A stretch of DNA of 64,000 bases from Candidatus Bathyarchaeia archaeon (GCA_050012255.1 JBEKHN010000012.1:1-64000); one strand, 5' to 3'; positions 9,069 to 52,025 are shown, numbered from the stretch's first letter. The notes: a model not told the origin generated them from the sequence alone. A program made the numbers and translations.

Positions 9069-9192
9069 GGGCCGGTAGCTCAGCTTGGCTGGAGCGTTCG
9101 GCTGATAAAGAAGTTGAAGGAGATTCCACTGAAAATCTCCCCTAACTTCTGCAGATACCGAAAGGTCGCCGGTTCGAATCCGGCCCGGCCCA
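9069..9192 (+). tRNA. tRNA-Ile(GAT) with a 49-nt intron at canonical position 37/38 (9108-9156)
   Basis: GGGCCGG/CCGGCCC acceptor stem, TTCGG-CT-GAT-A|intron|A-CCGAA anticodon arm, GTTCGAATC T-loop and intron stem AGAAGTT/AACTTCT. Confidence 0.93.
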
Positions 9193-38486: not shown

Positions 38487-39003
38487 AAAAGGATTGGTTC
38501 AAGTTTACACGGGGAACGGAAAAGGAAAGACTACGGCAGCTTTTGGACTTGCGCTCAGAGCGATAGGGAGAGGACTGAGAGTCTGCATAATCCAGTTTAT
38601 CAAAGGCGGGTTCGACTACGGAGAACTGTACGTAATAGACAGGCTTCCGGGCCTCAAGCTGAAAGCCTATGGCAGAGGCAAATTCGTTGACGGAAAGAAG
38701 CCTGACAAGACGGACGTGGATCTAGCGGAGGAAGCCCTAGCGACGGCTGAAAAAGCAATCAAGGACGGCGAATGCGACATAGTCATACTAGACGAAATCA
38801 ACGTGGCTCTAAGCCTCAAGCTGATAAAGACCGAGAATGTCCTAAACCTGATCAAGAAGAAACCTGCACAAGTCGAGCTGGTGTTAACTGGACGGAACGC
38901 ACCAAGCGAAATCGTTGAAGCAGCCGATTTAGTCACAGAAATGGTAGAGGTCAAACACCCGTACAGCAAGGGTTTTCATGCTCGAAAGGGAATCGAGTAC
39001 TAG
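38473..39003 (+). CDS. cobO: Cob(I)alamin adenosyltransferase (CobA/BtuR type)
   Basis: YTGNGKGKTTAAFG, QFIKG, LDEI, LTGR and KHPY...A..GIEY motifs. Confidence 0.93.
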   Translation: MPKLEKGLVQVYTGNGKGKTTAAFGLALRAIGRGLRVCIIQFIKGGFDYGELYVIDRLPGLKLKAYGRGKFVDGKKPDKTDVDLAEEALATAEKAIKDGECDIVILDEINVALSLKLIKTENVLNLIKKKPAQVELVLTGRNAPSEIVEAADLVTEMVEVKHPYSKGFHARKGIEY

Positions 39004-39037
39004 GCCCCCAAGAGAGCACTGGAGGAGTTGACCTGCC

Positions 39038-39733
39038 CTACTTCTCTTCTTTCAATGCGAGAGGGTATATTTCCTTAGCCACGTACTCCAAGTATGGCTC
39101 CTTCTCTGTCAAATTGAATATGGTCACGGATGCGTCTCGAGTTATGCCCACGACATAGCCATGCTCCCTTGACCTTGCAACTACGTACCACAGGTCACCA
39201 TGCTTGCCATAGTCCTCGAAAAGAGAAGTGTTTGTGAGGTCCGGCCCGTACAGAGACAGTTTGTCGATGTTTGGAATATCCACGTTGTCAAAGAATGTTA
39301 TCTTTGTGTCCTCAGGGTTCTTTAAGTGAAACTCTTTCAATGTTTCAGGAGAGATTCTAGCCTCCAGTACCCCACCTGCTTTTTCAAACAGTACTTCACT
39401 AAGCTTGTTTGCTATGAAATTGGCAACACGCTTCTTTTCAACTATGGTCAAGAACGTAGTACCTTCGCGTTCAGCGAAGCTAAACATTGCCTCAACTGTT
39501 CGAGGGGTAGGCAAGATCTTGCCCCTGTGGAAAACCTGAGTGACATAGTCGTGAGAATAGATGCCTCTCAACATGTTTTCCTTAGGAAGGAGACCAGTGA
39601 CCTCGGTTATGAGCGCAAGTTTGTAGTCTCCCTCTTCATAAGCCTCTTCAGTGCGATACCCTTCAAGTCTTGAAGCGATGTCCGCCACGGCAAGAGGCTC
39701 AGTCAGTTTGAAAACCTTACCAGCAACAACCAT
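39038..39733 (-). CDS. Archaeal hypothetical protein
   Basis: 231-aa ORF with host-like codon usage. It would be divergent from the SMC operon at the empty insertion site. Confidence 0.75.
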   Translation of the reverse strand: MVVAGKVFKLTEPLAVADIASRLEGYRTEEAYEEGDYKLALITEVTGLLPKENMLRGIYSHDYVTQVFHRGKILPTPRTVEAMFSFAEREGTTFLTIVEKKRVANFIANKLSEVLFEKAGGVLEARISPETLKEFHLKNPEDTKITFFDNVDIPNIDKLSLYGPDLTNTSLFEDYGKHGDLWYVVARSREHGYVVGITRDASVTIFNLTEKEPYLEYVAKEIYPLALKEEK

Positions 39734-40144
39734 TCTCGAACCCCAAGCCCTTAGTCTAGAAGGTTCTGCTTATGAAACTTTACGCTTCCAAACCTAAGAA
39801 TGCAGATTGCGATCCTTGACTCCACCTATATCTCACTGAGCATTTGTCACAGTGGCAATGGAGCTCTGTTTGTTCTTAACATAGGTTATTAGTCAACGCC
39901 ATGAACATCCATGCCGCCCATGTCCATTGCAAACGTGCCACGCACGGACCTAATCAAGTTCGAAAAGCAATCTCGAAGGATTGTGAAAATATCTTGGACA
40001 TCGAAGGTATCGAAATCCTCAGGAAAGCAGAATGCATGACCTAATCTATTTGTTGCAAAACTGTACTAATTGTTTTAATAAGAGTTATTGCGCTTTGAAA
40101 ATACACATGAACAACGTAAAAAGGTTAAAACATTTATGGGCCCT

Positions 40145-40294
40145 TATTCCGCGCGGAATATGAGGTCCTGGTCAGATGTCTCGAGAGTCCCCCTCGGATC
40201 CGAGGGGCCGCCTCGGAATAGGATCCGCGCACCTCTGAATCAGAGGGGGATAAGCTGTCAATCGGAGGGGGAGCCCCTCGAAATCAGAGGGGGA
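40145..40294. repeat. Palindrome and iteron cluster: three AATC(A/G)GAGGGGGA copies at 22-bp period plus two perfect palindromes
   Basis: Copies at 40238, 40260 and 40282. Palindromes TATTCCGCGCGGAATA (40145-40160) and CCCCTCGGATCCGAGGGG (40190-40207). Confidence 0.9.
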
Positions 40295-40308
40295 GAACTC
40301 TGCGCGCG

Positions 40309-40554
40309 CTATAGGTATCTTCTGCCTTTCAGTCTCCGACGCCACTGACTGTAAACCTCAATACTGTCCCGCATAGCATCATAGTTATTTCTCATCCGGT
40401 ACAGAGTGTTCCTAGCAGTCGTATAGTGAACTTTTATCGTGTCGGCAGCGTGCTTCAACGGGTTCTTGTACCCCTCATTCTGGGCCTTGATGATCTCCTC
40501 GATGAGTTCCCGCTGCCTCTTAGTCCACAGCAACCTGTTCGACAAAACGACCAT
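40309..40554 (-). CDS. Small HTH DNA-binding protein
   Basis: WTKRQRELI...LKHAADTIKVHYTTARNTLYR HTH-like pattern. Confidence 0.65.
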   Translation of the reverse strand: MVVLSNRLLWTKRQRELIEEIIKAQNEGYKNPLKHAADTIKVHYTTARNTLYRMRNNYDAMRDSIEVYSQWRRRLKGRRYL

Positions 40555-40752
40555 CCCGACCTCTAATGGCTATCTATAGTACATGTACCACGTTTTAAGA
40601 GTTTCTGTACCTGTCAAAACCAAACGTTAGATACTTTGAACTTCTACTCCCTGAGCAAACGGTCTTGAAGGTCATGTCCTTGGCGCCTCTGTCGAGAGCT
40701 GCTCGAGTTTCGCCTGGACTTGCTTAATCTTTTCAGAGGAATTATGCACTTG

Positions 40753-41028
40753 CTACCCCCCTGAAATTGGACTTTTCTGTCCGCTTAGCTTCTCAGCCTG
40801 CAACGCGTTGAGCCTCGTCACATTCATCAGGATCACTTCCCCACCTGCACGCATGCCGGACGTCGACGCGCAGACGTCTTCGTCTTTGTCTCTCCACTCC
40901 TCGAGTTTGTCCCATTCCCCTGGGGGCAGGGTGAAGAGGATGAAGACGCTGCGAGGTATGTCGAAGTGTCTTTTTTCTACGAAGGGGTCTTTGATCTTCG
41001 GTCCCTTCTTCTGGACCGCTGCGCGCAT
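40753..41028 (-). CDS. Hypothetical protein; the frame extends upstream into an RHH-like segment
   Basis: In-frame upstream sequence reads QVCCTVSKELLQDF...LSEAVSDLMRAAV but has no canonical start codon. Confidence 0.55.
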   Translation of the reverse strand: MRAAVQKKGPKIKDPFVEKRHFDIPRSVFILFTLPPGEWDKLEEWRDKDEDVCASTSGMRAGGEVILMNVTRLNALQAEKLSGQKSPISGG

Positions 41029-41336
41029 GAGATCACTGACTGCCTCTGATAGCCCTCCCGGATAGTGCGCATAGACGACGCGGTCCTGGAAGTCTTGAAG
41101 CAGCTCCTTTGAAACCGTGCAGCAGACCTGGGCCTCTCCTTTTAAACTGTTCTTCTTTGCTTCTTCAATGGGTTTACGGATTCCAGCTGCAAGGTCATGT
41201 AGGAGCTCACCCTGATTAGGGCGCGCGTTTTCTCCCTCCTATAGAATACTTCAAAGATATTCCCAACAGTAGTAAAAGGATAATGCTAATATATAAGAAT
41301 ATCCCTAGAGTATATCGGTGAGTCGGTGTGCAGGCC

Positions 41337-41495
41337 TTGCCGGTAAAGTTTCAAATGAGCGTCGTCCTCGTTGGAAAAAGCTTGAAAGTCACGATTCCCA
41401 AGGAGATCTGTGAGTACCTCGGTCTGAAGAAAGGCGACGTCGTGAGCCTGTGGGCCGACAACAGTCACATCATCATGGAAAAGAGGGAGTCCTGA
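41337..41495 (+). CDS. AbrB/MazE/SpoVT-family DNA-binding protein (52 aa)
   Basis: Hand translation MPVKFQMSVVLVGKSLKVTIPKEICEYLGLKKGDVV has the classic G.SL.VTIPK....LGL..GD motif. Confidence 0.85.
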   Translation: MPVKFQMSVVLVGKSLKVTIPKEICEYLGLKKGDVVSLWADNSHIIMEKRES

Positions 41496-41749
41496 CGTCC
41501 GGGGAAGTCACGGAGAACTTCGACGTAAAAGGGCATAGAACGGCCTTGTTTTCACAATTAGCCCACGTTCTAGTCGTCTCCAAGAACAAATTTGATAAGG
41601 AGTGTGCTGCCAACCGCGATCGACAGGCCTGGGGAAGACTCATCGTCACAGGGATTGAGGCGTACGCGAAGCTGCTTGAAACCGTTCAACTTGACGTCTT
41701 GGAGAAGCGTGTAAGCCAGCTTGAAGGTCGCGAGGGTGAAGCTAAATGA
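41450..41749 (+). CDS. Small helical protein with a C-terminal coiled coil (terminase-small-subunit-like by inference)
   Basis: LLETVQLDVLEKRVSQLE tail. The start is uncertain. Confidence 0.55.
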   Translation: MGRQQSHHHGKEGVLTSGEVTENFDVKGHRTALFSQLAHVLVVSKNKFDKECAANRDRQAWGRLIVTGIEAYAKLLETVQLDVLEKRVSQLEGREGEAK

Positions 41750-41952
41750 GGAGTAAGGAACTGGAGAAGCGCCTCGAGAAGCTTGAGAAAACGGTGAAGG
41801 TCAACGACAAGCCAAACATGATCCTGATCCGAGGGGAATGGTTCCCCCTCGATAATCGGCCTGAGACCATCGAAGCGGCAAAGACGACGCCTATCCCCTG
41901 GTACGGCCGCTGGTGGAGGGAGAACAACCCCCCGATAAAGGAGGAACCGTGA
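41746..41952 (+). CDS. Small hypothetical protein
   Basis: LEKRLEKLE N-terminus, with ATGA overlap with the previous gene. Confidence 0.6.
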   Translation: MRSKELEKRLEKLEKTVKVNDKPNMILIRGEWFPLDNRPETIEAAKTTPIPWYGRWWRENNPPIKEEP

Positions 41953-41953
41953 A

Positions 41954-44056
41954 ATGAGTACAGATGTAGCGATCCATTTGGTTGCGTATGACGAAGCTTC
42001 TGAAATAATTGAGCAGATGGGGTCTAACCTTTCCGCAACTTTCACTGACATTGGAGGGCGAACGCAAGACTTAGTGACAACTACTGATGGCGCGACTTCC
42101 AAGATTACAGATGACTGGAACCAGGTCAATGGTGCTGGACAGAATCTTAAGAAGACCCAAGAAGACATGCAGAGCAGTACAAGCGACACAGCAATGAGCA
42201 TGAACAGGCTGGCGCAATCCGGTGCCAACCTCTTCATAAGTTTTGAACGTGTTGAAAACGCTCAGGTAATGGTTGACAGGGCAAACCTGATGGTACAGCG
42301 AAGCACGCAAACCTGTGAAAAAGCTCAAACCGCGTACAACGACGCCGTTGCAAAGTACGGGCCGAACAGTGCCGAGGCGAAAGCCGCTCTTGACAGGCTT
42401 GCTATCGCCCAGGAAGCCGTTGTGGTCTCGCAGGAAAGGGCCGATATGTCAGCGAGAAACTTCAACAACACGATAATGTCGAGCGCACTGATGGTCATTC
42501 CCAGTTTCATCTCAATCATTGGAACCGTCAACAGTCTCCTGCCTGAAACAACCGCGGAAACTTTCAGTTTAGGCGCCGCCATAGACTTTGCGACTGGGCC
42601 CATCGGATTAGCGATAATCGCTGTCAGCGCCATGACCGCTGCTCTCGTGCTTATCCCAGGCGCCATGGACGCGGTTGTCAACGCGTTTGAAACTGCTGGA
42701 AACTTTTTCGTAGGCATCGCAAATGACATAGGCAATGCTTGGGGCGGCTTCGTCGGACTCTTCACAGGCGGAAACCAGCAAGCCGAAAAGTCAATAAATC
42801 CTCTGACGGCCTCTGTTGAGGACTACACGAAAGCCGTAAAAGACTCGACAACTGCGACTGATGATTACGTAGGGTCTATTAACACTTTGAACTCTACCGT
42901 CCAAAACCTATCAACAACTGTCCAAGGCGCGGGACAGGTTTGGGGTCCTTTTTCGCAAGCGGAAGAGACTGCGAGGCGGACAACGGAAGACTTCACGGTA
43001 AACGGACAAAAATATATGGCGGACATGGAGGAGACGTGGAGGGAAGCGCAAGCATCAGCTAACGTTAACCTTGGACAGATCAAGGCAGAATATGAGGAAG
43101 AGATAGATACTGGCCAATTTACAAAGGCAACCGATACCCTTCTCAAGTTCGCGGAACAGTATGGCTTACTCGTGCCTGAAGCTAAAAAAATCGTCTTGGA
43201 CTTCAAAGCTGTTCAAGCATCGATTCCAGAGTCAATTGAGGAGCAGCTGATTGGAAAGGCTCAGGCGGATCTTCAGGCGTTTCAAGACTGTGTAACAGGC
43301 AAGTTCGCAGGCATGCAAGGCGATTCTTCAGGCTACGTGAAACAGCTTGTTACCGATACGAATGATTTGATCAGCAGGGGACTCGTGGGCCAAGCTCAAG
43401 ATAACATTGCAGCCTACGTGAAATGCGCGACTGACAAGCATGATACACTCGTCTCCGATATCGAGGCTGACTTGGCAAAGCTGAAGGTGGACTACGCGGC
43501 CGGTGCCACTGATCTTGCGCCGATGATAAAGCAGCTTGAAGAGTTTAAACTTGCAGCAACATTCGGCGAGCCTGGGGTAGACATTTTCGCTGCTATAAAA
43601 CTGGCAGGCACCACGGCCAGTGAAGTTGCTGCTGAAACAGAAACGGCAACGACGCAGATCACAGCTTCGTTCCAAGGCATGGCGAACAATGCGATCTTGC
43701 ATGCTCAGAGACTTCAGGATAGTCTTGTCGGACAGAGCATCTGGACTGACATGCTGACTAAGATGGAAAGTACGACGGAGAAATCAGTCGCTAAGATCCA
43801 GGGGCAGTTCCAGATGCTTCAGCCAGAAGGCCTCATCGGAGGCGGCTTCGGCGTTCCAGAAGCTCTCCCCAGGGCCGGAGGAGGAAAGGTGATCAACGCG
43901 CCAATCAGGATCACTATTGAAGGAAACGCTGATAGGGCGACTGTTGATTTGATGAAGAAAGAGATTTTTGCGGCTTTGAAGTCAGTTGTTGTTGAGCCTA
44001 CAAGCAGCAATGCGCCCACTACGTCGAAGAGGATAAGGCAGGGAAGTACGTTCTAG
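41954..44056 (+). CDS. Tail tape-measure-like protein (700 aa)
   Basis: N-terminal I.L.A.D.AS motif, Ala/Gln/Thr-rich helices, central hydrophobic GPIGLAIIAV segment, LVGQSIWTDM motif and C-terminal I.I.I.G.AD. Confidence 0.78.
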   Translation: MSTDVAIHLVAYDEASEIIEQMGSNLSATFTDIGGRTQDLVTTTDGATSKITDDWNQVNGAGQNLKKTQEDMQSSTSDTAMSMNRLAQSGANLFISFERVENAQVMVDRANLMVQRSTQTCEKAQTAYNDAVAKYGPNSAEAKAALDRLAIAQEAVVVSQERADMSARNFNNTIMSSALMVIPSFISIIGTVNSLLPETTAETFSLGAAIDFATGPIGLAIIAVSAMTAALVLIPGAMDAVVNAFETAGNFFVGIANDIGNAWGGFVGLFTGGNQQAEKSINPLTASVEDYTKAVKDSTTATDDYVGSINTLNSTVQNLSTTVQGAGQVWGPFSQAEETARRTTEDFTVNGQKYMADMEETWREAQASANVNLGQIKAEYEEEIDTGQFTKATDTLLKFAEQYGLLVPEAKKIVLDFKAVQASIPESIEEQLIGKAQADLQAFQDCVTGKFAGMQGDSSGYVKQLVTDTNDLISRGLVGQAQDNIAAYVKCATDKHDTLVSDIEADLAKLKVDYAAGATDLAPMIKQLEEFKLAATFGEPGVDIFAAIKLAGTTASEVAAETETATTQITASFQGMANNAILHAQRLQDSLVGQSIWTDMLTKMESTTEKSVAKIQGQFQMLQPEGLIGGGFGVPEALPRAGGGKVINAPIRITIEGNADRATVDLMKKEIFAALKSVVVEPTSSNAPTTSKRIRQGSTF

Positions 44057-44352
44057 AGACAAGTAGTCGTGTCAACACTCAGTATCTCGTCTTCTTCAAA
44101 GTCCGCCGCGGACCGGTTCCTGAGCAACTGTTCATAGGCCCTCGGATAGCTGATTTGCAAGTCTCTGAGACGCCCGTTGTTGGCGTCTTTCCTGTTTTCG
44201 AAGGTCCCAACTACTTTGCCATAACTTTTGGGCGGCCGCTCGCCTTGGCGTATGATCCAGTAGTCGCAGAAACCAAAGGCCTCGCATTTCAACACGTAGA
44301 CTCGGTCGAAGAATTGCGAGATTTCCTCAAGAGTTGATATTCGGCGCTGCAA
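44053..44352 (-). CDS. Hypothetical protein
   Basis: Last gene of the helicase operon. Confidence 0.55.
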   Translation of the reverse strand: MQRRISTLEEISQFFDRVYVLKCEAFGFCDYWIIRQGERPPKSYGKVVGTFENRKDANNGRLRDLQISYPRAYEQLLRNRSAADFEEDEILSVDTTTCL

Positions 44353-44365
44353 GTTTTTCGACGTA

Positions 44366-44866
44366 TCACTCGCCTCCTCTAAGTCTAGCCCGTCGCGCGC
44401 GCTCTTTCGCCTTCGCCTCTTCTCGGATTTCGGCCTGATGGTCCTTGGACTCCTTCACGAGTTTGAGCGCGCACACGTATCCTGCGCGCGCGGCCTCGGC
44501 ATCCTGACAAACTTTGACTGTTTCATTGTGGCTTTCATGAGCCCTATGGAGTCTTCGAGCGTTCTCAATCACTTCAGTTGTTGAGGGCCCTTGTTCCTGT
44601 TCTCCCTCCGGCTGTGGCTTTTCGAAAGCGAAAGTTGAACCTAGAGTCTCAGAGACTTCGGGCGGCGGCGCCGGAAAACGCTTCTCATATAGGGCCCGTA
44701 TACGCTCTCGCTCTTCCGGAGTTGCGATTTGAGGCCTAGCTTGCTTTGGCACTTTTGAGTCTAGCGCGCGCCTGCATTTGTTGCAGCCGCTGGGACATTG
44801 ACCTATCAGAGGCGTAAATTCAAGGGCTAAGGTGACCCGGTCAGTTCCAAGTCTCGTTTCATTCAT
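44366..44866 (-). CDS. Hypothetical protein with a CxxxCxxC motif
   Basis: Overlaps the upstream gene and is co-oriented with it. Confidence 0.6.
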   Translation of the reverse strand: MNETRLGTDRVTLALEFTPLIGQCPSGCNKCRRALDSKVPKQARPQIATPEERERIRALYEKRFPAPPPEVSETLGSTFAFEKPQPEGEQEQGPSTTEVIENARRLHRAHESHNETVKVCQDAEAARAGYVCALKLVKESKDHQAEIREEAKAKERARRARLRGGE

Positions 44867-45143
44867 GTTTCAATATCACCTCCCAGTTGCGTAATAGACT
44901 CAATTGTTTATCGTCTCCCAGGAGGAGCAGCGTGCAGGGCTTGTGGATCCTGCCGAGGCTGCCCGCCTCGAATCTGACAAGGCGCCCCTTAGCTTCCCAG
45001 CCTGCGCTTCGCACCGTCACCCATCGGCCGACGAAATAGACTAGAAGATTGCGCTCCTCAAAGACTATGACGTCCTTTTCGTACTCTTCTCTTTTGCTTA
45101 TCGCACTGTCCTTGGACAAGGGGATACAGAACCGGCTTGTCAT
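44859..45143 (-). CDS. Small beta-rich (Sm/SH3-like) hypothetical protein
   Basis: VGRWVTVR...AKGRLVRFE pattern, with ATGA overlap with the helicase gene. Confidence 0.6.
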   Translation of the reverse strand: MTSRFCIPLSKDSAISKREEYEKDVIVFEERNLLVYFVGRWVTVRSAGWEAKGRLVRFEAGSLGRIHKPCTLLLLGDDKQLSLLRNWEVILKHE

Positions 45144-46687
45144 GCGTCGTTCAACCTCTTCTCAAGTTCAATTCCACACTCTTCACAGAGGAGGCCCCAA
45201 CTCCCATTACGACAGGTCGCTTGCCATTCCATGCGCCCTCGAAAACCACACGCTACGCACTTGTCCTGATAGTTCATGGTCAGTCGTTCGAGCTTCAGCG
45301 TTTGACTGGCTAGGGCTTCTAAATTGCCTTCACTACCTTCACTTTGTTCACTTCCTTCACTCTTTAGCCCTTCTTCAGAGGCTAATTTTTCCTTAGTCCG
45401 TGAAGGAAGTGAAGGTTGTGAGGGAAGTGAAGGTGTTTCAGAAGGGGGTTCATACCGGGCCTTTAGTCTTTCAATCAGCTTAATGTCCCAGAAGAAGCCG
45501 GACTTACCTCCTCCGAACCGGCACTTCTCAAAGCCCAAAGCGGCGACCTTACGTCCCACTTGAGTGGTCTTCAGCTGCTCCTTCTCTGACAGGCCCACGT
45601 TGAAAGTGTCCGTTATCGCCTGGGTCGACAGCTTTCCTTCTTTGATATCCTTTTCGCATTTGAGCACAGCGTCGAACATCCGTGCCTCGATGCTGGCCTG
45701 CTCCTCGTCCAAGCGGCTCTTTGTGATCTGCTTCATGCAGGTTATGAGGCGGGCCCTTATGTCTTCTGTAGGAGCAACTTGTAGAAGACTCACGAAAAGT
45801 TCAATTACCCGAGCATTTTTGAACTGACCGTTTAGCCAGGACATCTCAAAGAGCCCAGGTTCTTTCGCCAAGTTTTTGAAGCGGTACATCAGCAACCTGT
45901 TTCTCAGGTCCTGGGCCTTCTCCTCGTCTATGAAGAGGTTGATCTGCTTCACGTTCCGTGTCATCGTCGTTATCACGCAGCGGCTTTGAAGCGTAGAGGC
46001 GAGTTCCTGAGTTCCGGCGAGAACCTTGAAACCGAAGGTGTCGAACATGGCGATCTGAGGGCAACCCTCTTCGACCTTTTCTATTCTGATCGCGTACTGA
46101 CCTTTCCGGTAGCCGCTGTTAAGCAAGGCAAGTACTTCGACCATTGCTTCTCGGTTGTAGATCTCACATTCGTCCAGCAGAAGAACGGGATGCCAGGCCT
46201 CAAGGGCCCGGAACAGGCTTGCAGCACTCATTGAAGAAGCTATGACTCCTCGGTAACAGATTCTACCGAAGCATTCGAGCGCGCGGGTTTTGCCGCTTGC
46301 CATGGGCCCGAGGAAAAAGGCGTAGGGCACAACGGTGAACTCTTCAGTTCTCCAAGTGGCCAGGGTGAAGGCGGCGTAAACATCGTAGAAGAGGTCGTTC
46401 GCAATGTCCAAGTGTTCAACGTAGAAGGCCCGGACGTCAGAGAACAATTGGATCTCGCTTTTATAGTCTTTCGGCCGGGTTGCAGCCGGCCAGGGAAGGC
46501 GCTTCAGAGGAACATACTCTTCTCCCTCATGATAGAAATGATGTGGGTCGCTGGGAGCTTCAAACTTGCTCTCGTTTCTGTCGAAGATGACATAGCACCC
46601 GTTCGTTACCTGTTCAAAAATGACGGTTGGAAAAGCGAAGCCAGGCGTCGACGTCGGCTTGACTTTCTCCTCCTTCTCTTTCGCCAC
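45140..46687 (-). CDS. Replication helicase/ATPase (DUF3631-like AAA+) with C-terminal wHTH and zinc finger
   Basis: Walker A GPMASGKT, Walker B LLLDE, LLNSGY, SRC arginine finger and CxxC...CxxC. Confidence 0.8.
   Translation of the reverse strand: MAKEKEEKVKPTSTPGFAFPTVIFEQVTNGCYVIFDRNESKFEAPSDPHHFYHEGEEYVPLKRLPWPAATRPKDYKSEIQLFSDVRAFYVEHLDIANDLFYDVYAAFTLATWRTEEFTVVPYAFFLGPMASGKTRALECFGRICYRGVIASSMSAASLFRALEAWHPVLLLDECEIYNREAMVEVLALLNSGYRKGQYAIRIEKVEEGCPQIAMFDTFGFKVLAGTQELASTLQSRCVITTMTRNVKQINLFIDEEKAQDLRNRLLMYRFKNLAKEPGLFEMSWLNGQFKNARVIELFVSLLQVAPTEDIRARLITCMKQITKSRLDEEQASIEARMFDAVLKCEKDIKEGKLSTQAITDTFNVGLSEKEQLKTTQVGRKVAALGFEKCRFGGGKSGFFWDIKLIERLKARYEPPSETPSLPSQPSLPSRTKEKLASEEGLKSEGSEQSEGSEGNLEALASQTLKLERLTMNYQDKCVACGFRGRMEWQATCRNGSWGLLCEECGIELEKRLNDA
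45327..45433. repeat. Two inverted arrays of four 9-bp iterons (CCTTCACTN) inside the helicase gene; putative origin
   Basis: 45327-45362 forward and 45398-45433 inverted, separated by a 35-bp spacer. Confidence 0.88.
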
Positions 46688-46721
46688 GGCCGTGCACTCC
46701 CTTGACCCGCGCGTTAGTTTG

Positions 46722-46814
46722 CTATTTTACGGTCCCCTTCAAAATCGCAAGTGCTTCCTGCAGGATCTCTTTCGTCTCCCAGATGAGTTCGCGGAGAGTC
46801 TCACGGTCCGTCAT
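46722..46814 (-). CDS. 30-aa peptide MTDRETLRELIWETKEILQEALAILKGTVK
   Basis: Hand translation, with GGAG upstream. Lies between the RHH gene and the helicase. Confidence 0.45.
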   Translation of the reverse strand: MTDRETLRELIWETKEILQEALAILKGTVK

Positions 46815-46827
46815 TTCGTCAACTCCT

Positions 46828-46974
46828 TCACTCGTTCAAGTCTTTGGCGATTTTTTCTCTGACTGTTTGTCTCAGGAAGTTGCTTCTGTCGAGTCCTTGT
46901 TTCTCCGCGTACTTGTCGATTTGCTCGATAATTGCGTTCTTCTCTTTGAACCCGATAACCTTGTCCGCTTTCAT
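46828..46974 (-). CDS. CopG-like ribbon-helix-helix protein (48 aa)
   Basis: Hand translation MKADKVIGFKEKNAIIEQIDKYAEKQGLDRSNFLRQTVREKI. Confidence 0.8.
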   Translation of the reverse strand: MKADKVIGFKEKNAIIEQIDKYAEKQGLDRSNFLRQTVREKIAKDLNE

Positions 46975-47056
46975 CGCGTTTCAACTCAATTTAAAAGCTT
47001 ATAACGGAAGAATCGTATACGGTTTAGTGGAACTCGGTTCCAGTAGAGGACGCTAT

Positions 47057-47476
47057 TTGAAAATCAGATGGCAAACTCACCGAAAGTGGCTCTCTCAAAC
47101 TAAGGTCTTTGAGGCTTTCAAGAATGAGAAAGGGGCAGTTGAGGCAAAGACCTGGTCTGAGTTGGAGGCTAAGGTTCCAAGGGCTACTCTCTCCCGAACT
47201 CTGAGGGATTTGATGAAGGAAGGTAACGTGCAAGCCAGTTTACGCCTTGGCAAGAATGGCAAACTAGAAACCGTCTACAAACTAGTGCACGAGTGGCAGA
47301 CAGTCAAACATCACGTGGTTCAAGCCTCCTACAAGGGGAAACCATTCGGAACGTATGAAGGGATGATTTACATGAGACGGGGAAAACTCCATTGCAGACT
47401 GCCTGAAGACGAAAAGAAAAGATTATTGGATGACCAGAAGAGGGCCCAAGGGGCCAGGTCCACTTCTGAGATCTAA
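47057..47476 (+). CDS. Winged-helix transcriptional regulator
   Basis: KTWSELE..VPRATLSRTLRDL...G.V......VYKL. Divergent from the RHH gene. The start is inferred. Confidence 0.8.
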   Translation: MKIRWQTHRKWLSQTKVFEAFKNEKGAVEAKTWSELEAKVPRATLSRTLRDLMKEGNVQASLRLGKNGKLETVYKLVHEWQTVKHHVVQASYKGKPFGTYEGMIYMRRGKLHCRLPEDEKKRLLDDQKRAQGARSTSEI

Positions 47477-48562
47477 CTACTCGCTTTCTTCTTTCAGTCT
47501 CCTCTCGAGTTCTTCAACCCTTTTGAGCAGCCCCTCGATCGCGGCTGCCTTGCGCAGGTCCTCCTGGCCTAGGGCCTGGCCGCCCTGGAGGTTCAAGAGC
47601 TCGATAATGCCGGCGTCGGTCAAGAGTTGTCTGAGCTTTTCGTCCTCGGGCATGTAGGCGCCGTTGAACCTCAACTGGTGCCCGGTCATTTTGTCGATCA
47701 GGTCGTCGCTGACCTTGTTTCTCAGCTGCGCGCTGAACCAGAGGCGGCAACAGTGAAAACTCAGCCTTTTTCCGTTATCTGTCAACCCGGCTTTTGCGCA
47801 TAGGGCCTTGAAAATCTTGTTCGGCTGCCCATTCTCAACGTGTTTCTCCTTGTACCCTGGGAACAGCCAGGGACCCTTAACGGTTGCCACGTACGTCTTG
47901 AGCATTGCTTGAACTTCAGGCGTCAAGACTAGGAGGATCTCACTGTTTGTTTTAGGCCTCACCAACTCGACAAATTCAAGCCTTACGCCGTCAAGTTTTC
48001 CCTCGAAATCTGTGACCTTCAACCCTGCAACCGTGCTTTCATCTTGACCCATTAATCCGAGGGCCAAAACACACTTGTCACGCAGGTCCGCGAGGTCGAA
48101 TAACCGCCCTATCTCAGGGCCCATCAGCTGGTGTTTCTTCCTTTCAATCCGAGGCCGCTGCATCCGCACGTCTTTCTTTCGGAATTTTCTAAGGCTAATC
48201 GGCAGATTGTAAAAAGCGAAGAAACTCTGCACCACCGTCACCGCGTGTTTGGCCGTCAACTGACTCAGCGTCTTCTCCTTGAACCGTCCAGTCGTGCCTC
48301 CGGCTCTGCCCTTGACGCTGCCCGTCAGTTTCGCCTTGCTTTCCATGAGTTGTTGATAGTACGCGAAGACCCTGCGGTTGTACGTGTCTGATTTGTCAGG
48401 ATCTTGTAGTAACTGGCGTTGCTCAGCGATCATCTCGGTTCCAGTTTTGCCAGTGAACTGCTCGAAACGTTTAAAGGAGGACTCATACGTTTGTTTCGTT
48501 GCGATAGAGGTGAAAGTCTCTAGCCATTCTCGCACTTTCGGGTCGTTTGTCACGCACTTCAC
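47477..48562 (-). CDS. Tyrosine recombinase/integrase
   Basis: RDK.VL, RPKT, FHCCR (HxxR), MTGH and AY catalytic Tyr. The box I Arg position is Asp. Confidence 0.92.
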   Translation of the reverse strand: MKCVTNDPKVREWLETFTSIATKQTYESSFKRFEQFTGKTGTEMIAEQRQLLQDPDKSDTYNRRVFAYYQQLMESKAKLTGSVKGRAGGTTGRFKEKTLSQLTAKHAVTVVQSFFAFYNLPISLRKFRKKDVRMQRPRIERKKHQLMGPEIGRLFDLADLRDKCVLALGLMGQDESTVAGLKVTDFEGKLDGVRLEFVELVRPKTNSEILLVLTPEVQAMLKTYVATVKGPWLFPGYKEKHVENGQPNKIFKALCAKAGLTDNGKRLSFHCCRLWFSAQLRNKVSDDLIDKMTGHQLRFNGAYMPEDEKLRQLLTDAGIIELLNLQGGQALGQEDLRKAAAIEGLLKRVEELERRLKEESE

Positions 48563-48670
48563 CGATAGAAGTGTTATAACAAACGGACATATATGCTTTA
48601 CCTATTTGAAAGTGTAAGAATAAGAGAATTTTCACCTTTATTATCTACCACACACTGGGAAAAATCATCA

Positions 48671-50635
48671 ATGCTGATTCAAGAGGTAATCCTCGAGAAC
48701 TTCATGAGTTACGAGTACGGCAGAGTGCCCTTTAAACCAGGCGTGAATGTTGTCTGTGGACCAAACGGTTCGGGAAAGTCGTCCCTTCTTCTGGCCATAT
48801 CCGTGGCTCTAGGGCAGTCTTACACTGAACGCTCTAAGAAACTGAGCGACCTCATACGTTGGGGCAAAGACCAAGCCCGGGTGACCTTGGTCCTGGATAA
48901 CACCAGGAGGGGAAAGAACAGGCCAGTGCCAAGATTCAACAAAGACCAGATTTTTCTCACACGCGTCCTGAGGCGTGACGGAACGTACTGGTTCTCTCTT
49001 GAAAACCATGCCGTCAACAAGAACGATGTTGAAAGACTCTTGGGAAGGTTGGGCGTTGACCCGGACAACATACTCATCATAATGCATCAGAACATGGTTG
49101 AACAGTTCACTGTGCTTTCTACCCAGGAGAAACTGCGAATAGTAGAAGCAGCAGTTGGACTCGAGCCCTATCGTGAAAATGTTTTGCAAGCACAGAAAAA
49201 GCTGACCCGAATACTAAGCCAGGAAGAGTCGATGAGTAAACTCTTGGAGTCAGCCGAGCAGACATTGAATTACTGGAGAGGACAATACGATAGGTACCAA
49301 GAGAAAAAGCAGTTACAGTCGAAAAGAAGGTTCCTAGAAAGAGAGCTAGCGTGGGCCGAAGTTGCAAGAAGGGAAGAAACGGTAAGGCAGCTGGAGGCTG
49401 AGAGAAAAAAGCAACAAGGCATTCTTGACCAGATCGAAGAAAAGACAAGGTCGGCAAAGGGTCACCTGCAGACTCAGGAACATGAGCGTGTAAAGCTGAA
49501 GGACGACTGGAGACAACTTTTTGACGAACGCCTGAGCTTCGAACGTCAGAAGGCAGGAAACTCATCGACCGTTCCGCTGTATGAACAACTTTTGAGAGAA
49601 ACAGCGACGCTAGAGATGCTCAGTCAAAACCCTGGCAAGGATACAACTCTTGAAACTGGGCAGGTTTCGAGGAAAACAGTGCAGATCAAACTCCTTAGGA
49701 GTGAAGAACTCAAAGAGTTGATACAAAATTCGAAAGAACACGCCTCAAAATTGGACGCTGAAATAGAAAGAAATCAGATGAAGACGAGGAACTGGGAAGA
49801 AGCAACCGAAAAGGTGAGTACTCAAATCTTGAACCTTCGCATCGAATTGGCGCTAATGCAATACCGAACGGAGAGCTCCGCGGCCAACGTCAAAGAACTT
49901 GAAAGATCCCTGAGTGAGGCGAAAACTCGTCTGGGTGAAACAGTAAAGAAGGCTGAGCAAGTCGGAGCCAGAATTGCAGTAATAGAGGAATTTGGCAAAA
50001 TCCTCGACGAGATACGCGTCACAGAAGGACACTTGGCTGCACTTTCAGATGTCTCAGAAGACATTGAACGCATGTACGAGTCCTATTCAAAACTCTATCT
50101 TGAACTGAAAGAGAAAGCCCAGCTTGTTGCCGAAAACCGTGAAAAAACACTGGAAGAGGTGAAGACGAGAATGCAGTCTTGGCGAACAGTCATTGGCAAC
50201 CTTCTCGACCACGTCAACTTGGAGTACCAGAAAACCTTAACCCAAGCTCAAGCCGTAGGAGAGGTTAGACTCGCCAACGGCCATGACATGGAGACAGCCG
50301 GACTCGAAATTCTCGTGGGGTTCAAAGGCGGAAGACCAGTCCCTCTTGACGCTTACACGCAGAGCGGTGGAGAAAGAACAACCGCAACGATGAGCTTTCT
50401 GCTGGCCTTACAGCAACACGTCCGTTCCCCGTTTCGCGCCGTCGACGAATACGATATCCACATGGACCCGAAAAACCGTGAACTCGTCGCTCAGATGCTC
50501 GTCTCAAGAGTTAACGATTCAAACGCACAGTACATCGTGATAACTCCAAGCCAAGTAACGTTCACAAAAGAAGGAACAAACATAATCACTGTTCAAAACA
50601 TTGAAGGTAAATCGATAATCAGAGAGGTGGCGTAA
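48671..50635 (+). CDS. Short Smc5/6-related SMC ATPase (ClsN/Arcadin-4-like)
   Basis: LENFMSY, GPNGSGKSS, coiled coil and QSGGER...LQ....PFRAVDEYDIHMD. The start at ATG 48671 is inferred. Confidence 0.88.
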   Translation: MLIQEVILENFMSYEYGRVPFKPGVNVVCGPNGSGKSSLLLAISVALGQSYTERSKKLSDLIRWGKDQARVTLVLDNTRRGKNRPVPRFNKDQIFLTRVLRRDGTYWFSLENHAVNKNDVERLLGRLGVDPDNILIIMHQNMVEQFTVLSTQEKLRIVEAAVGLEPYRENVLQAQKKLTRILSQEESMSKLLESAEQTLNYWRGQYDRYQEKKQLQSKRRFLERELAWAEVARREETVRQLEAERKKQQGILDQIEEKTRSAKGHLQTQEHERVKLKDDWRQLFDERLSFERQKAGNSSTVPLYEQLLRETATLEMLSQNPGKDTTLETGQVSRKTVQIKLLRSEELKELIQNSKEHASKLDAEIERNQMKTRNWEEATEKVSTQILNLRIELALMQYRTESSAANVKELERSLSEAKTRLGETVKKAEQVGARIAVIEEFGKILDEIRVTEGHLAALSDVSEDIERMYESYSKLYLELKEKAQLVAENREKTLEEVKTRMQSWRTVIGNLLDHVNLEYQKTLTQAQAVGEVRLANGHDMETAGLEILVGFKGGRPVPLDAYTQSGGERTTATMSFLLALQQHVRSPFRAVDEYDIHMDPKNRELVAQMLVSRVNDSNAQYIVITPSQVTFTKEGTNIITVQNIEGKSIIREVA

Positions 50636-51462
50636 TGCAGTCCAGAAAAGCACATGAGAAGCTCGGCAGAGAGAAGCTTCAACGCATCATCGAAACGTGC
50701 AGGTCCGTTGAAGAACGATCGCTTGACCCGTTCTTGATAGACCTTAAGGAGAACATCAGTACGGTCAGAGAATACTTTCCAGAATGGAAGATTCCAGAAG
50801 ACCTTTGCTTGGACGCTGAAACCATACACCGCCTAGCCTCCGTAGTCAAGCTTCAAAGCGAGTGGGTCAAACATCGGTCAACCTCACTCTACACAGACCC
50901 CTTTGTTCTGGAAGAAAAACTCAGGCGACTAGACAAGGAGGAGATCGTTAGAACCTTTATCAAAGCTTGGCATCCATTGGTTGAGTGGGAGCAGATATCA
51001 CTTCACAGCCTGGCCGAAGCCGTCAGGTACTGGAACAGTCTGGTGCCACTGAGAGAAAGGTGGAAGGAAGCCCCTCCGGCCGAAGTTGGCTCAGGCTCAG
51101 CAACGCGCGAAGAGCTTGTTCGCGAAAGGATTCTGCGAGATAAAGCCTTCTCCGAGGAACTCGAGAACTTCTGGCTTGAATTGAAGAACGTCGTCGCCCA
51201 GAAGGGTCAGAACGGAAAGATACGATACTGGGATTTCATCGGCGCAGAATCTTACGAGGAAACCGTGAACAGAGCTTTCATGACAAGCTTCCTCGTCACA
51301 TATGGCTATGCCACCTTGGAAATTCACCCGTTGGAAGAAGAAATGTATATTGTACCCTACCAAAAACTGCTGGTTAAGACGGGAAAAGAGCAGCTGGTGT
51401 CAATACCCATCTCAGTTTCAGCGACTGACTGGCAGAGGTGGAGGCGAGGAGAGCTGAAGTGA
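50635..51462 (+). CDS. Kleisin (ScpA/Nse4-like) subunit, putative
   Basis: LDPF.IDL N-terminal motif, C-terminal wHTH-like SFLV..GY..L, translationally coupled to the SMC gene. Confidence 0.6.
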   Translation: MQSRKAHEKLGREKLQRIIETCRSVEERSLDPFLIDLKENISTVREYFPEWKIPEDLCLDAETIHRLASVVKLQSEWVKHRSTSLYTDPFVLEEKLRRLDKEEIVRTFIKAWHPLVEWEQISLHSLAEAVRYWNSLVPLRERWKEAPPAEVGSGSATREELVRERILRDKAFSEELENFWLELKNVVAQKGQNGKIRYWDFIGAESYEETVNRAFMTSFLVTYGYATLEIHPLEEEMYIVPYQKLLVKTGKEQLVSIPISVSATDWQRWRRGELK

Positions 51463-52025
51463 GCAAGAGAAAAGCAACGTATGCCAGCAAACTGAAAAGA
51501 GCAACTCACATGCTCTTCTTCAAACGACACGCAAAACCTGGTGTTAAGGGTTGGGAACTGCGTAAGGCGTTGGGCGCTGATTATCCAAAAGTGTTGAAGA
51601 TTATGGATGACTACCTGAAGGGCCTTGACCTCGAAGTCAAAACCGTGTTCGAAGAAGGAAAGCAAGTTGAAAAGCCGAGTGTCGAACAGCTTGACAAGGC
51701 CAGATTCTACGTAGCGCTACGAGGGGAATTGGTGCCTAAAGAAGCAAAGATGATAGGGTGGCGGATAGACGACTTTGCAGGACTGGCAGTCGCCATTGCC
51801 TACGTCTTGTCCAAGAAGGGAAAGGCGCCGAGAGAAGAGGTTGAGCAACTGTTGCGAGAAAAGATCCCAGGATGGAAAGTGGGCCTTAACGTTGACAGGT
51901 ACGTCAGGTATGGTTACTTGGCTGAAGACGAAAACGGACAGCTTTACTTGGATTGGAGAACTCGCGCAGAAGTCGACCAAAAAGCTTTGATTGAACTTCT
52001 TTTGGCCGTAGAGACAAAAACCTAG
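51459..52025 (+). CDS. Kite (ScpB/Nse1-3-like) tandem winged-helix subunit, putative
   Basis: Two wHTH-like halves and ..YGYL....GQLYL.WRT.AE motif. Third gene of the SMC operon. Confidence 0.6.
   Translation: MSKRKATYASKLKRATHMLFFKRHAKPGVKGWELRKALGADYPKVLKIMDDYLKGLDLEVKTVFEEGKQVEKPSVEQLDKARFYVALRGELVPKEAKMIGWRIDDFAGLAVAIAYVLSKKGKAPREEVEQLLREKIPGWKVGLNVDRYVRYGYLAEDENGQLYLDWRTRAEVDQKALIELLLAVETKT

Follow-up and report, generated by a model that had tools for sequence, protein, structure and literature searches.

A 64,000-nucleotide stretch of DNA from a Candidatus Bathyarchaeia archaeon (GCA_050012255.1, JBEKHN010000012.1:1-64000; hereafter the window) carries an 8,534-bp element (40085-48618) that separates two divergent host genes. 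To its left is a gene on the minus strand for a 231-aa protein (39038-39733). To its right is a gene on the plus strand for a 654-aa ATPase related to SMC proteins (48671-50635), which is the first of three genes that we refer to as the SMC-like operon. The element is bounded by two plus-strand copies of the 8-mer AATAAGAG, and approximately ten open reading frames (ORFs) lie between these copies. One of them encodes an intact 361-aa tyrosine recombinase (integrase; 47477-48562, minus strand). We consider it highly probable that the locus holds an integrative element whose own tyrosine recombinase inserted it in a conserved, unique block upstream of an Smc5/6-like operon, and that this block is probably the B recognition element (BRE)/TATA region of the operon.

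Empty alleles define the breakpoints of the insertion

The two copies of AATAAGAG form the cores of the left (attL; 40077-40084) and right (attR; 48619-48626) attachment (att) sites, and both are located where an earlier note on this DNA had reported them. By itself, this repeat proves nothing. The 8-mer is present three times in the window compared with 2.13 expected copies, and at least three copies occur in 34 of 100 shuffles, which bears out the caution of that note that an 8-bp match can be due to chance. The breakpoints are nonetheless settled, because sequences that lack the element align exactly with the window. In three genomes of the same genus (G001, G007, and G010), the 231-aa and SMC-like genes are adjacent, with a single core between them and distances of 395, 393, and 393 bp, respectively. 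The 395 bp of G001 correspond exactly to window positions 39734-40084 plus 48627-48670, and all three alignments are unbroken across the junction (...TTGTTTTAATAAGGGAATTTTCACC... or ...CTAATTGTTTTAATAAGGGAATTTTCACC...). These are the breakpoints and the gene arrangement that had been predicted for relatives without the element.

A fourth empty site was found in sequencing run X2, which is from another study. A 353-nt contig of this run maps to 39798-40076 and then to 48619-48692, with one other letter. At the joint, 8542 bases are skipped and 8 letters can be assigned to either side, and the depth of X2 is zero across 40101-48541. The X2 pieces that were listed have only 0-2 other letters each, as is expected for a near-identical strain. 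Run X4 exhibits the same joint with six ambiguous letters. The occupied form was recovered from run X1, where a separate Logan assembly contains it in one 13,398-nt record that covers 39000-50000 with 0 differences, although X1 is probably the source sample and hence represents the same reads. Judged from contigs, the allele is occupied in X1 and empty in X2 and X4.

These results demonstrate that the insertion is precise and has exact breakpoints. It is polymorphic between near-identical strains, and therefore the event is recent. No transposase families were detected among the element proteins in Pfam and PHROG scans, and 11 related contigs all proved to be without a terminal overlap.

Architecture of the attachment site

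The right end of the element carries an arm termed P (TTTGAAAGTGTAAGAA, 48605-48620, plus strand), and the left end carries an arm termed P' (TTATTGCGCTTTGAAA, 40085-40100, plus strand) that is an inverted copy of P at 12 of 16 positions. When the ends are joined, the arms pair around the 6-bp spacer TAAGAG, which is the last 6 bp of the attR core copy. The inner part of this pairing is the 9/12 match that the earlier note had described, and extension of the arms gives the 12/16 match. Across the 63,962 positions of the window, this geometry reaches 12/16 at just two. When the joined ends were shuffled and, more loosely, a 12/16 match was accepted anywhere with spacers of 4-10, 64 of 2000 shuffles qualified. 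The symmetry is also present in the two other complete elements described below (L082, 13/16; L083, 12/16). Their left-end arms are conserved but differ in sequence, and the right-end arm is identical or nearly so in these two elements and in a third (L081).

Tyrosine recombinase core sites usually consist of inverted arms around a 6-8 bp overlap. The element site has this layout, and the 8 bp that are shared with the host site span the overlap. The integrase gene is whole after integration, with the core located 57 nt upstream of its start. On the host side, the arms of the attB site show inverted-repeat symmetry at just 3 of 16 positions, and this is not the palindrome of a dif-like site. 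The arrangement is best described as the common tyrosine recombinase core type and not specifically as Xer/dif. What stands of the earlier proposal of an Xer/dif-type site is the generic layout of arms and spacer. The specific assignment does not stand, given the host arms and the score of the integrase against the XerA model NF040815 (37.9 bits vs. a cut-off of 220).

The target is a conserved and unique block

The left half of the host block (CTAATTGTTTTAATAAGAG, 40066-40084, plus strand) holds the TATA-like sequence TTTTAATA (40073-40080) and ends in the attL core. The host DNA left beside the SMC-like gene (48627-48670, plus strand) includes AATTTTCACC, the A/T-rich sequence TTTATTAT (48637-48644), and the Shine-Dalgarno-like motif GGGAAAAA (48657-48664). 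In the reconstructed empty allele, TTTTAATA starts 56 nt upstream of the ATG at 48671, in agreement with the earlier estimate of ∼55 bp. Integration separates the upstream part of this conserved TATA-like block from the operon by 8.5 kb, as had been proposed.

We compared 17 relatives of the window genome, which comprise nine genomes of the same genus and eight of other genera. The block, which reads (C)TAATTG(T/C)TTTAATAA(G/T)(A/G)G...TTT(C/T)ACC, is present ∼45-65 nt upstream of the SMC-like ATG in all 17, consistent with the earlier statement that the target is not a tRNA gene. It is the most conserved stretch upstream of the SMC-like gene in the relatives compared. The alignment has 14 invariant columns, 12 of which fall within 23 nt around the core. 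The block also travels with the SMC-like gene. In two genomes (G004 and G005) the 231-aa gene is elsewhere and the block is still beside the SMC-like gene, and in three others (G003, G009, and G008) it is always next to this gene despite a widened gap between the two host genes. Among 43 further loci examined with 1-kb flanks, of which 42 are labelled Bathyarchaeota or Bathyarchaeia and one Acidiferrales bacterium, the motif is followed by the SMC start in 21, and none of the sites is occupied. The other 22 loci are without the motif within the flank. Furthermore, the 18-mer TAATTGTTTTAATAAGAG (40067-40084) is unique in the 2.35-Mb genome that includes the window (G000), even when up to two mismatches are allowed.

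The single locus labelled Candidatus Acidiferrales bacterium (L103; DASPPK010000099.1) encodes a 231-aa protein with 95% identity and has the same empty site. This is probably a mis-binned Bathyarchaeia contig.

Other elements occupy the same site

A metagenome search with the integrase yielded 14 loci, one of which is the window's own contig. In three others (L081, L082, and L083; tblastn best-segment identities of 90, 83, and 81%), the element lies directly beside the start of the SMC-like gene. Their junctions are alike and consist of the element end TATTTGAAAGTG(T/C)AAG, the core, and the host sequence A(A/G)TTTTCACC.

The partial sequence L081 has a host flank that is identical to the window at 127 of 127 positions. 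On the element side 867 of 1000 positions match, and no similarity extends beyond the integrase gene. By these comparisons, L081 represents a distinct element that resides in the host species of the window. The mini-element L082 is complete, measures 2,137 bp, and lies between two AATAATAG cores in a 2,375-nt contig. Besides the integrase it encodes only a 153-aa ORF, for which a very weak Fic/DOC match was obtained (E 0.069). L083 is a 10.6-kb element whose two flanks match genome G003 at 98.4 and 97.8%, with a 13-bp overlap there, and for this reason G003 represents its empty site. In BLASTP comparisons, L083 and the window element have in common only the integrase and a frame that overlaps it. 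L083 encodes a primase-helicase with PriCT_1, D5_N, and DUF5906 matches, plus a NosD/beta-helix protein with a dockerin. Sequence comparison indicates that at least four different elements share one integration module, which is made up of the integrase and both arms.

Larger gaps between the 231-aa and SMC-like genes exist within the genus, in G003 (contig C5, 2.7 kb), G009 (C14, 2.1 kb), and G008 (C16, 24.5 kb) (L042-L045). We considered these gaps as insertion hot spots and rejected them, as they hold ordinary genes and no integrase. These genes include a cysteine-rich 198-aa ORF, aldolase-like ORFs, a nitroreductase, an ABC transporter, and similar genes.

The integrase and its relatives

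The integrase matches PF00589 (37.4 bits, cut-off 27.1, E 2.9e-9) and phrog_1 (E 7.9e-13). Residues R202, H270, R273, H295, and Y303 are invariant in a 16-sequence alignment of integrase homologues (A1), and we take them to be the catalytic-type residues of this enzyme class (R...HxxR...H/W...Y). When the genome was searched with the XerA model, the integrase scored 33 bits and ranked 12th of 14 matches, none of which exceeded the cut-off. A profile of the integrase family has one match in the PDB, the Pyrococcus abyssi XerA structure 4a8e (E 1e-4, 24.7 bits). Three of the 14 XerA-model matches are clustered within 9 kb on contig C1 of the same genome (C1:297281-305693), which suggests that the genome may carry further integrated elements.

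A protein search returned 27 integrase relatives, including the window's own, with identities of no more than 83% over the aligned part. One of these homologues (P0002) is 82% identical and is encoded on a 19.6-kb contig. Among representative genomes of the order, 22 of 201 have a match with E ≤ 1e-10, and the best is 32% identical. A scan of IMG/VR with the integrase revealed no relative.

Eight of the metagenome loci are more remote (L079, L084-L086, and L088-L091; 45-56% identity). The 260 nt upstream of their integrase genes, compared by eye with loci L092 and L093 left out, are unlike the SMC flank. They retain a TTT(C/G)AAA motif ahead of a TATA-like box. One idea raised by these flanks is that the whole integrase family might aim for positions ∼50 nt upstream of host gene starts. 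For the far end of L086, the sole candidate repeat is in coding-looking DNA and is without an arm, and it was dropped. Directly upstream of the integrase gene of L088 (48% identical), positions 1000-1270 contain three copies of a 36-nt CRISPR-like repeat with ∼37-nt spacers, and the third copy continues into the element-end arm. The related locus L085 has a different flank and shares AATTAAT(G/T)ACTTTTGAAA. This layout reflects either insertion of the L088 element at a CRISPR repeat or a mini-array that belongs to the element.

Is the target block a promoter?

Shine-Dalgarno sequences are in use in this genome, with core motifs concentrated at -16 to -10 across 618 upstream regions, and orthologues of the SMC-like gene have AGGAAAAA or GAGGC ∼10-20 nt before the ATG. 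A transcript that includes the Shine-Dalgarno-like motif must start upstream of it. Archaeal transcription usually starts ∼25 nt downstream of the TATA box. A start upstream of the motif therefore fits the TATA-like sequence TTTTAATA at -56 to -49 and not TTTATTAT at -34 to -27. On these grounds, we lean toward the interpretation that the target block is the TATA/BRE region of the SMC-like operon, in which case TTTATTAT would be an A/T-rich proximal element. The suggestion in the earlier note that integration and excision could toggle expression of the complex is a separate matter and stands as a hypothesis. A material change in operon transcription in the occupied allele, most likely a decrease, is conceivable, but we are inclined to doubt it.

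For comparison, a BRE/TATA matrix was built from the upstream regions of 28 tRNA genes of the genome (consensus AGAAAACTTTAAATT; the 99.9th percentile of the background is 7.1 bits). An expectation-maximization motif search of 460 gene upstream regions drifted to a weak generic motif. With the tRNA matrix, a BRE/TATA-like site (39770-39784, minus strand; 7.9 bits) was located 51 nt upstream of the 231-aa gene and is its probable own promoter. Because the gene has this site, it does not need the block. Another site (48588-48602, minus strand; 8.7 bits) is located 40 nt upstream of the integrase start and is the probable integrase promoter. A third, inward-reading site (40118-40132, plus strand; 7.6 bits) is AAAAAGGTTAAAACA-like and lies at the left end of the element. 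Alignment by eye indicates that it is kept at the left ends of L082 and L083, which are otherwise unrelated elements, and in L083 it precedes the NosD/dockerin gene. A BRE/TATA-like sequence is also present on the minus strand of the host right arm (48627-48641; ATAAAGGTGAAAATT, 6.6 bits), where it faces left. When the element is present, this sequence is directed toward the integrase gene and lies 79 nt upstream of that gene's start.

Host genes on either side of the element

The SMC-like protein matches PF02463 (E 1.9e-40). Among proteins in the PDB, phmmer ranks Smc5 (2.6e-33) and Smc6 (8.7e-28) ahead of prokaryotic Smc (1e-24). By this measure, the 654-aa protein is an SMC-family ATPase whose closest relatives among solved structures are eukaryotic Smc5 and Smc6, and the label "Smc5/6-like" used in the earlier note is reasonable as a statement of resemblance. 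A canonical-length SMC is encoded elsewhere in the genome, by a 1217-aa frame on contig C6. The second gene of the operon (50635-51462, plus strand) encodes a 275-aa candidate kleisin with a match to PF08743 (Nse4_C; E 3.1e-4, 21.4 bits) that is under the cut-off of 26, and with no PDB match. The third (51438-52025, plus strand) encodes a 195-aa protein to which no family was assigned.

The 231-aa gene has no Pfam or NCBIfam family and is divergent from the SMC-like operon. This divergent pair is conserved in relatives. Among 41 genomes of the order that were searched (including G000), the 231-aa protein is present in 36 and the SMC-like protein in all 41. An AF2 model of the 231-aa protein (pLDDT 83.4) has RdgC as its best Foldseek match (2owl, E 1.3e-5, TMq 0.48); TBP-fold proteins and Iml3/CENP-L rank next. 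As a lead, the modelled fold suggests that the protein may be a DNA-binding partner of the operon.

Element cargo and other features

Apart from the integrase, no ORF of the element has a firm family. An 81-aa ORF (40309-40554, minus strand) has no significant family match. A 700-aa ORF (41954-44056, plus strand) has a weak tape-measure-like match over residues 30-165 (phrog_34082, E 1.7e-5) and no Pfam family. A 210-aa ORF (46844-47476, plus strand) received no family in Pfam and other scans. A 515-aa ORF (45140-46687, minus strand) has a P-loop and no Pfam, PHROG, or PDB sequence match. Toprim and DUF3631 clusters are among its Atlas structure matches (TM 0.59-0.74), and those closest to it come from Bathyarchaeota and viruses. 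These matches offer a lead that this protein is a probable DUF3631-like replication ATPase.

The 3' part of the 515-aa gene contains 45-nt inverted repeats of GTGAAGG-like heptads that are 78% complementary (45316-45444), and one X4 contig has a 38-nt length variant at these repeats. An Rfam scan of 39700-40700 at E ≤ 1 returned nothing, and the hairpin-rich region at 40140-40310 folds no better than shuffled sequences (z -1.32). Elsewhere in the window, Rfam identifies a 124-nt tRNA (9069-9192, plus strand; 54.8 bits) that ARAGORN did not report. This is probably an intron-bearing archaeal tRNA.

Proposed mechanism and alternative explanations

The simplest model is that the element integrase (47477-48562) acts on the element site, in which a pair of inverted 16-nt arms encloses a 6-bp overlap, and recombines it with a chromosomal site that is unique. 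The latter would be the center of the block (CTAATTGTTTTAATAAGAG/AATTTTCACC), with its core ∼50 nt before the SMC-like ATG. It shares the 8 bp of AATAAGAG with the element, and one core copy would be left at each junction. A conserved, unique block of this kind could offer the integrase a reliable place to land across many host species, in the manner of a tRNA gene. If the block is a promoter, the operon would keep the TATA-like 3' part, the A/T-rich proximal element, and the leader, and the element arm TTTGAAAGTGTAAG would replace the upstream half. Excision would restore the original arrangement.

Several observations weigh against this model or against its promoter component. The core in G001, G007, and G010 is AATAAGGG and not AATAAGAG. 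The earlier note had called for reads across both the attB and attP junctions. The empty-site joint was found in the contigs of X2 and X4, whereas neither an attP junction nor a circular form was seen in the contigs of the runs compared, which are contig data only. In L083 the attL core (∼245-252 in the orientation of the window) is 3 nt short and has AATAG in place of AATAATAG; the full AATAATAG is present in the G003 empty site and in the right junction of L083. Because the L082 core is full at both ends, the short core looks like a later slip in the AAT repeat. With 3 nt missing, the spacer would shrink to 3 bp, and the element could be trapped. With regard to the promoter, the tRNA matrix gives the empty allele 4.0 bits, which is within the top 0.5% of the background, and the occupied allele 2.6 bits, and does not name a promoter. 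Moreover, TTTATTAT stays with the operon, is partly conserved, and could be the TATA box of a nearly leaderless transcript. The right arm of the element also places GAAAG, a sequence similar to the BRE half of the tRNA promoter consensus, beside the AATAAGAG copy that remains, and the hybrid junction may still function as a promoter.

The last two of these observations are the core of an explanation in which integration is real but neutral, with the promoter inside 48627-48670 (TTTATTAT as TATA box and a very short leader) or with a BRE/TATA region rebuilt by the right arm, in the way that elements inserted in tRNA genes restore the end of the gene. As a corollary, the block would be an operator or a leftward promoter, and the 6.6-bit site on the minus strand of the host right arm is of the kind expected for the latter. 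In most relatives, TTTATTAT and related A/T-rich sequences are at a fixed distance from the core, and in the occupied allele the GAAAG of the right arm is directly upstream of TAAGAATAAG. The SMC operon is also intact in the occupied genome. However, an intact operon says little on selection because the insertion is recent, as is evident from a near-identical strain without the element. A start ∼4 nt before the ATG would leave out the conserved Shine-Dalgarno-like motif, and given this downstream motif a promoter inside 48627-48670, which the earlier note had named as grounds for refutation, is less likely. In addition, TTTCACCTTTATTAT scores -1.5 bits, and the TTTTAATAA block is far better conserved than TTTATTAT. 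Neutral integration is accordingly a serious contender, though not the explanation that we would choose. A more far-reaching proposal is that these elements target the promoter of the Smc5/6-like operon to lower the level of a complex that acts against episomal DNA by silencing or restriction. In eukaryotes, SMC5/6 has such a silencing role and is antagonized by viruses (PMC9980727, PMC12656486), the closest solved relatives of the SMC-like protein are Smc5 and Smc6, and four elements are located at one site. Against this, the complex is present in 41 of 41 genomes of the order and looks like a housekeeping gene, and a sequence that is both conserved and unique makes a good att site regardless of what it does. 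We regard this proposal as improbable. The same low standing applies to the broader suggestion that a family of small Bathyarchaeia elements inserts in the Smc5/6-like TATA region by means of a dedicated integrase, uncouples the upstream control, and thereby either switches a complex that holds extrachromosomal DNA in check, in a reversible manner, or antagonizes it. If true, it would be an archaeal counterpart of both bacterial active lysogeny and viral antagonism of eukaryotic SMC5/6.

Two other explanations concern the origin of the insertion itself. A host dimer-resolution system might have acted at a dif-like site, as it does for integrative mobile elements exploiting Xer (IMEX). The inverted arms around a 6-bp spacer, and the solved XerA structure 4a8e as the sole match of the integrase-family profile, are in keeping with such an event. 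Yet the element encodes its own recombinase, which falls far short of the XerA cut-off and ranks 12th of 14 in the genome, the host arms pair at 3 of 16 positions, and the site is in a promoter-proximal block that travels with the SMC-like gene. From these sequence comparisons, an Xer/dif event appears already contradicted, and we hold it to be very improbable. Even less credible is that the repeat reflects chance, an assembly chimera, or the target-site duplication of a transposase. The 8-mer alone is indeed not significant, but the breakpoints are exact in four independent empty-site sequences, and the arms recur at this site in three other elements. The X1 Logan assembly, which is probably from the same reads, spans 39000-50000 without differences, and the Pfam and PHROG scans found no transposase family in the element. 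Thus, we favor integration by the element's own tyrosine recombinase.

Relationship to known systems

In SSV-type integration, the att site is inside the integrase gene, which is split on integration, whereas pNOB8-type integrase genes stay whole. By gene arrangement, and not by phylogeny, the element resembles the pNOB8 type, with an integrase gene that is intact in the integrated state. Unlike in the SSV type, the att site is outside the integrase gene, and the gene is not split. The element shares with XerA/dif and IMEX systems a tyrosine recombinase and two inverted arms around a 6-bp spacer. It differs from them in that its integrase is far below the XerA cut-off, its host site is not palindromic, and it has its own enzyme.

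Integrated elements of Thaumarchaeota have att sites as short as 8 bp, and of 68 insertions reported there, 39 are in tRNA genes, 15 are intergenic, and 14 are in protein-coding genes (Krupovic et al. 2019, PMC6563490). Its authors also describe cryptic elements of small size that encode replication proteins, and the word "promoter" is absent from the main text of that paper. Neither the short core nor the choice of a non-tRNA target is therefore novel on its own. Like the thaumarchaeal elements, the window element has a tyrosine recombinase, site-specific integration, and short direct repeats. In contrast, its host is a member of Bathyarchaeia, the target is a single block that is conserved family-wide and lies directly upstream of an Smc5/6-like operon, and one integration module carries several unrelated cargos.

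A bacterial precedent is SpyCIM1 of Streptococcus pyogenes, which integrates at the 5' end of mutL and blocks the operon until excision restores it; one of the two abstracts reports rescue by an island-borne promoter (PMC4689407, PMC3430984). Excisable regulatory switches named in the consulted part of PMC8987985 are bacterial, with Listeria given by name and others by cited work. Like SpyCIM1, the element is an integrase-bearing island located 5' of a DNA-maintenance operon. SpyCIM1 and other examples of active lysogeny are, as those accounts describe them, bacterial and experimentally shown, whereas this element is known from sequence alone.

Yoshinaga and Inagaki (2021, PMC8665677) describe archaeal SMC homologues related to SMC5/6 in TACK lineages, of which Bathyarchaeota are one. 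Like these homologues, the protein described here is an archaeal SMC-family member that occurs beside a canonical SMC and is nearest to Smc5 and Smc6. It differs in that it is only 654 aa long, the Nse4-like match of its neighbor is below threshold, and its likeness comes from a PDB search and not from phylogeny. The papers examined that pair Bathyarchaeota or Bathyarchaeia with integrases deal with viruses, proviruses, and Asgard elements, and none of these describes elements at this locus. Archaeal tyrosine-recombinase integrative elements as a kind are known; this one has an unusual target, and its integration module is common to at least four elements.

Implications

The small integrative elements of Bathyarchaeia are barely described. 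An integrase family with full att sites, three complete elements, and natural empty sites provides a ready substrate for the biochemistry of archaeal recombinases. The target is unusual in that it is a unique motif upstream of an Smc5/6-related operon that is conserved across genera and is probably a TATA region. Should the operon be transcribed differently as a result of integration, this would to our knowledge be the first archaeal mobile-element switch acting on a chromosome-maintenance complex, and it would offer a route to the function of archaeal Smc5/6 relatives. If transcription is unaltered, conserved promoter motifs would still serve as anchors for mobile elements, as tRNA genes do.

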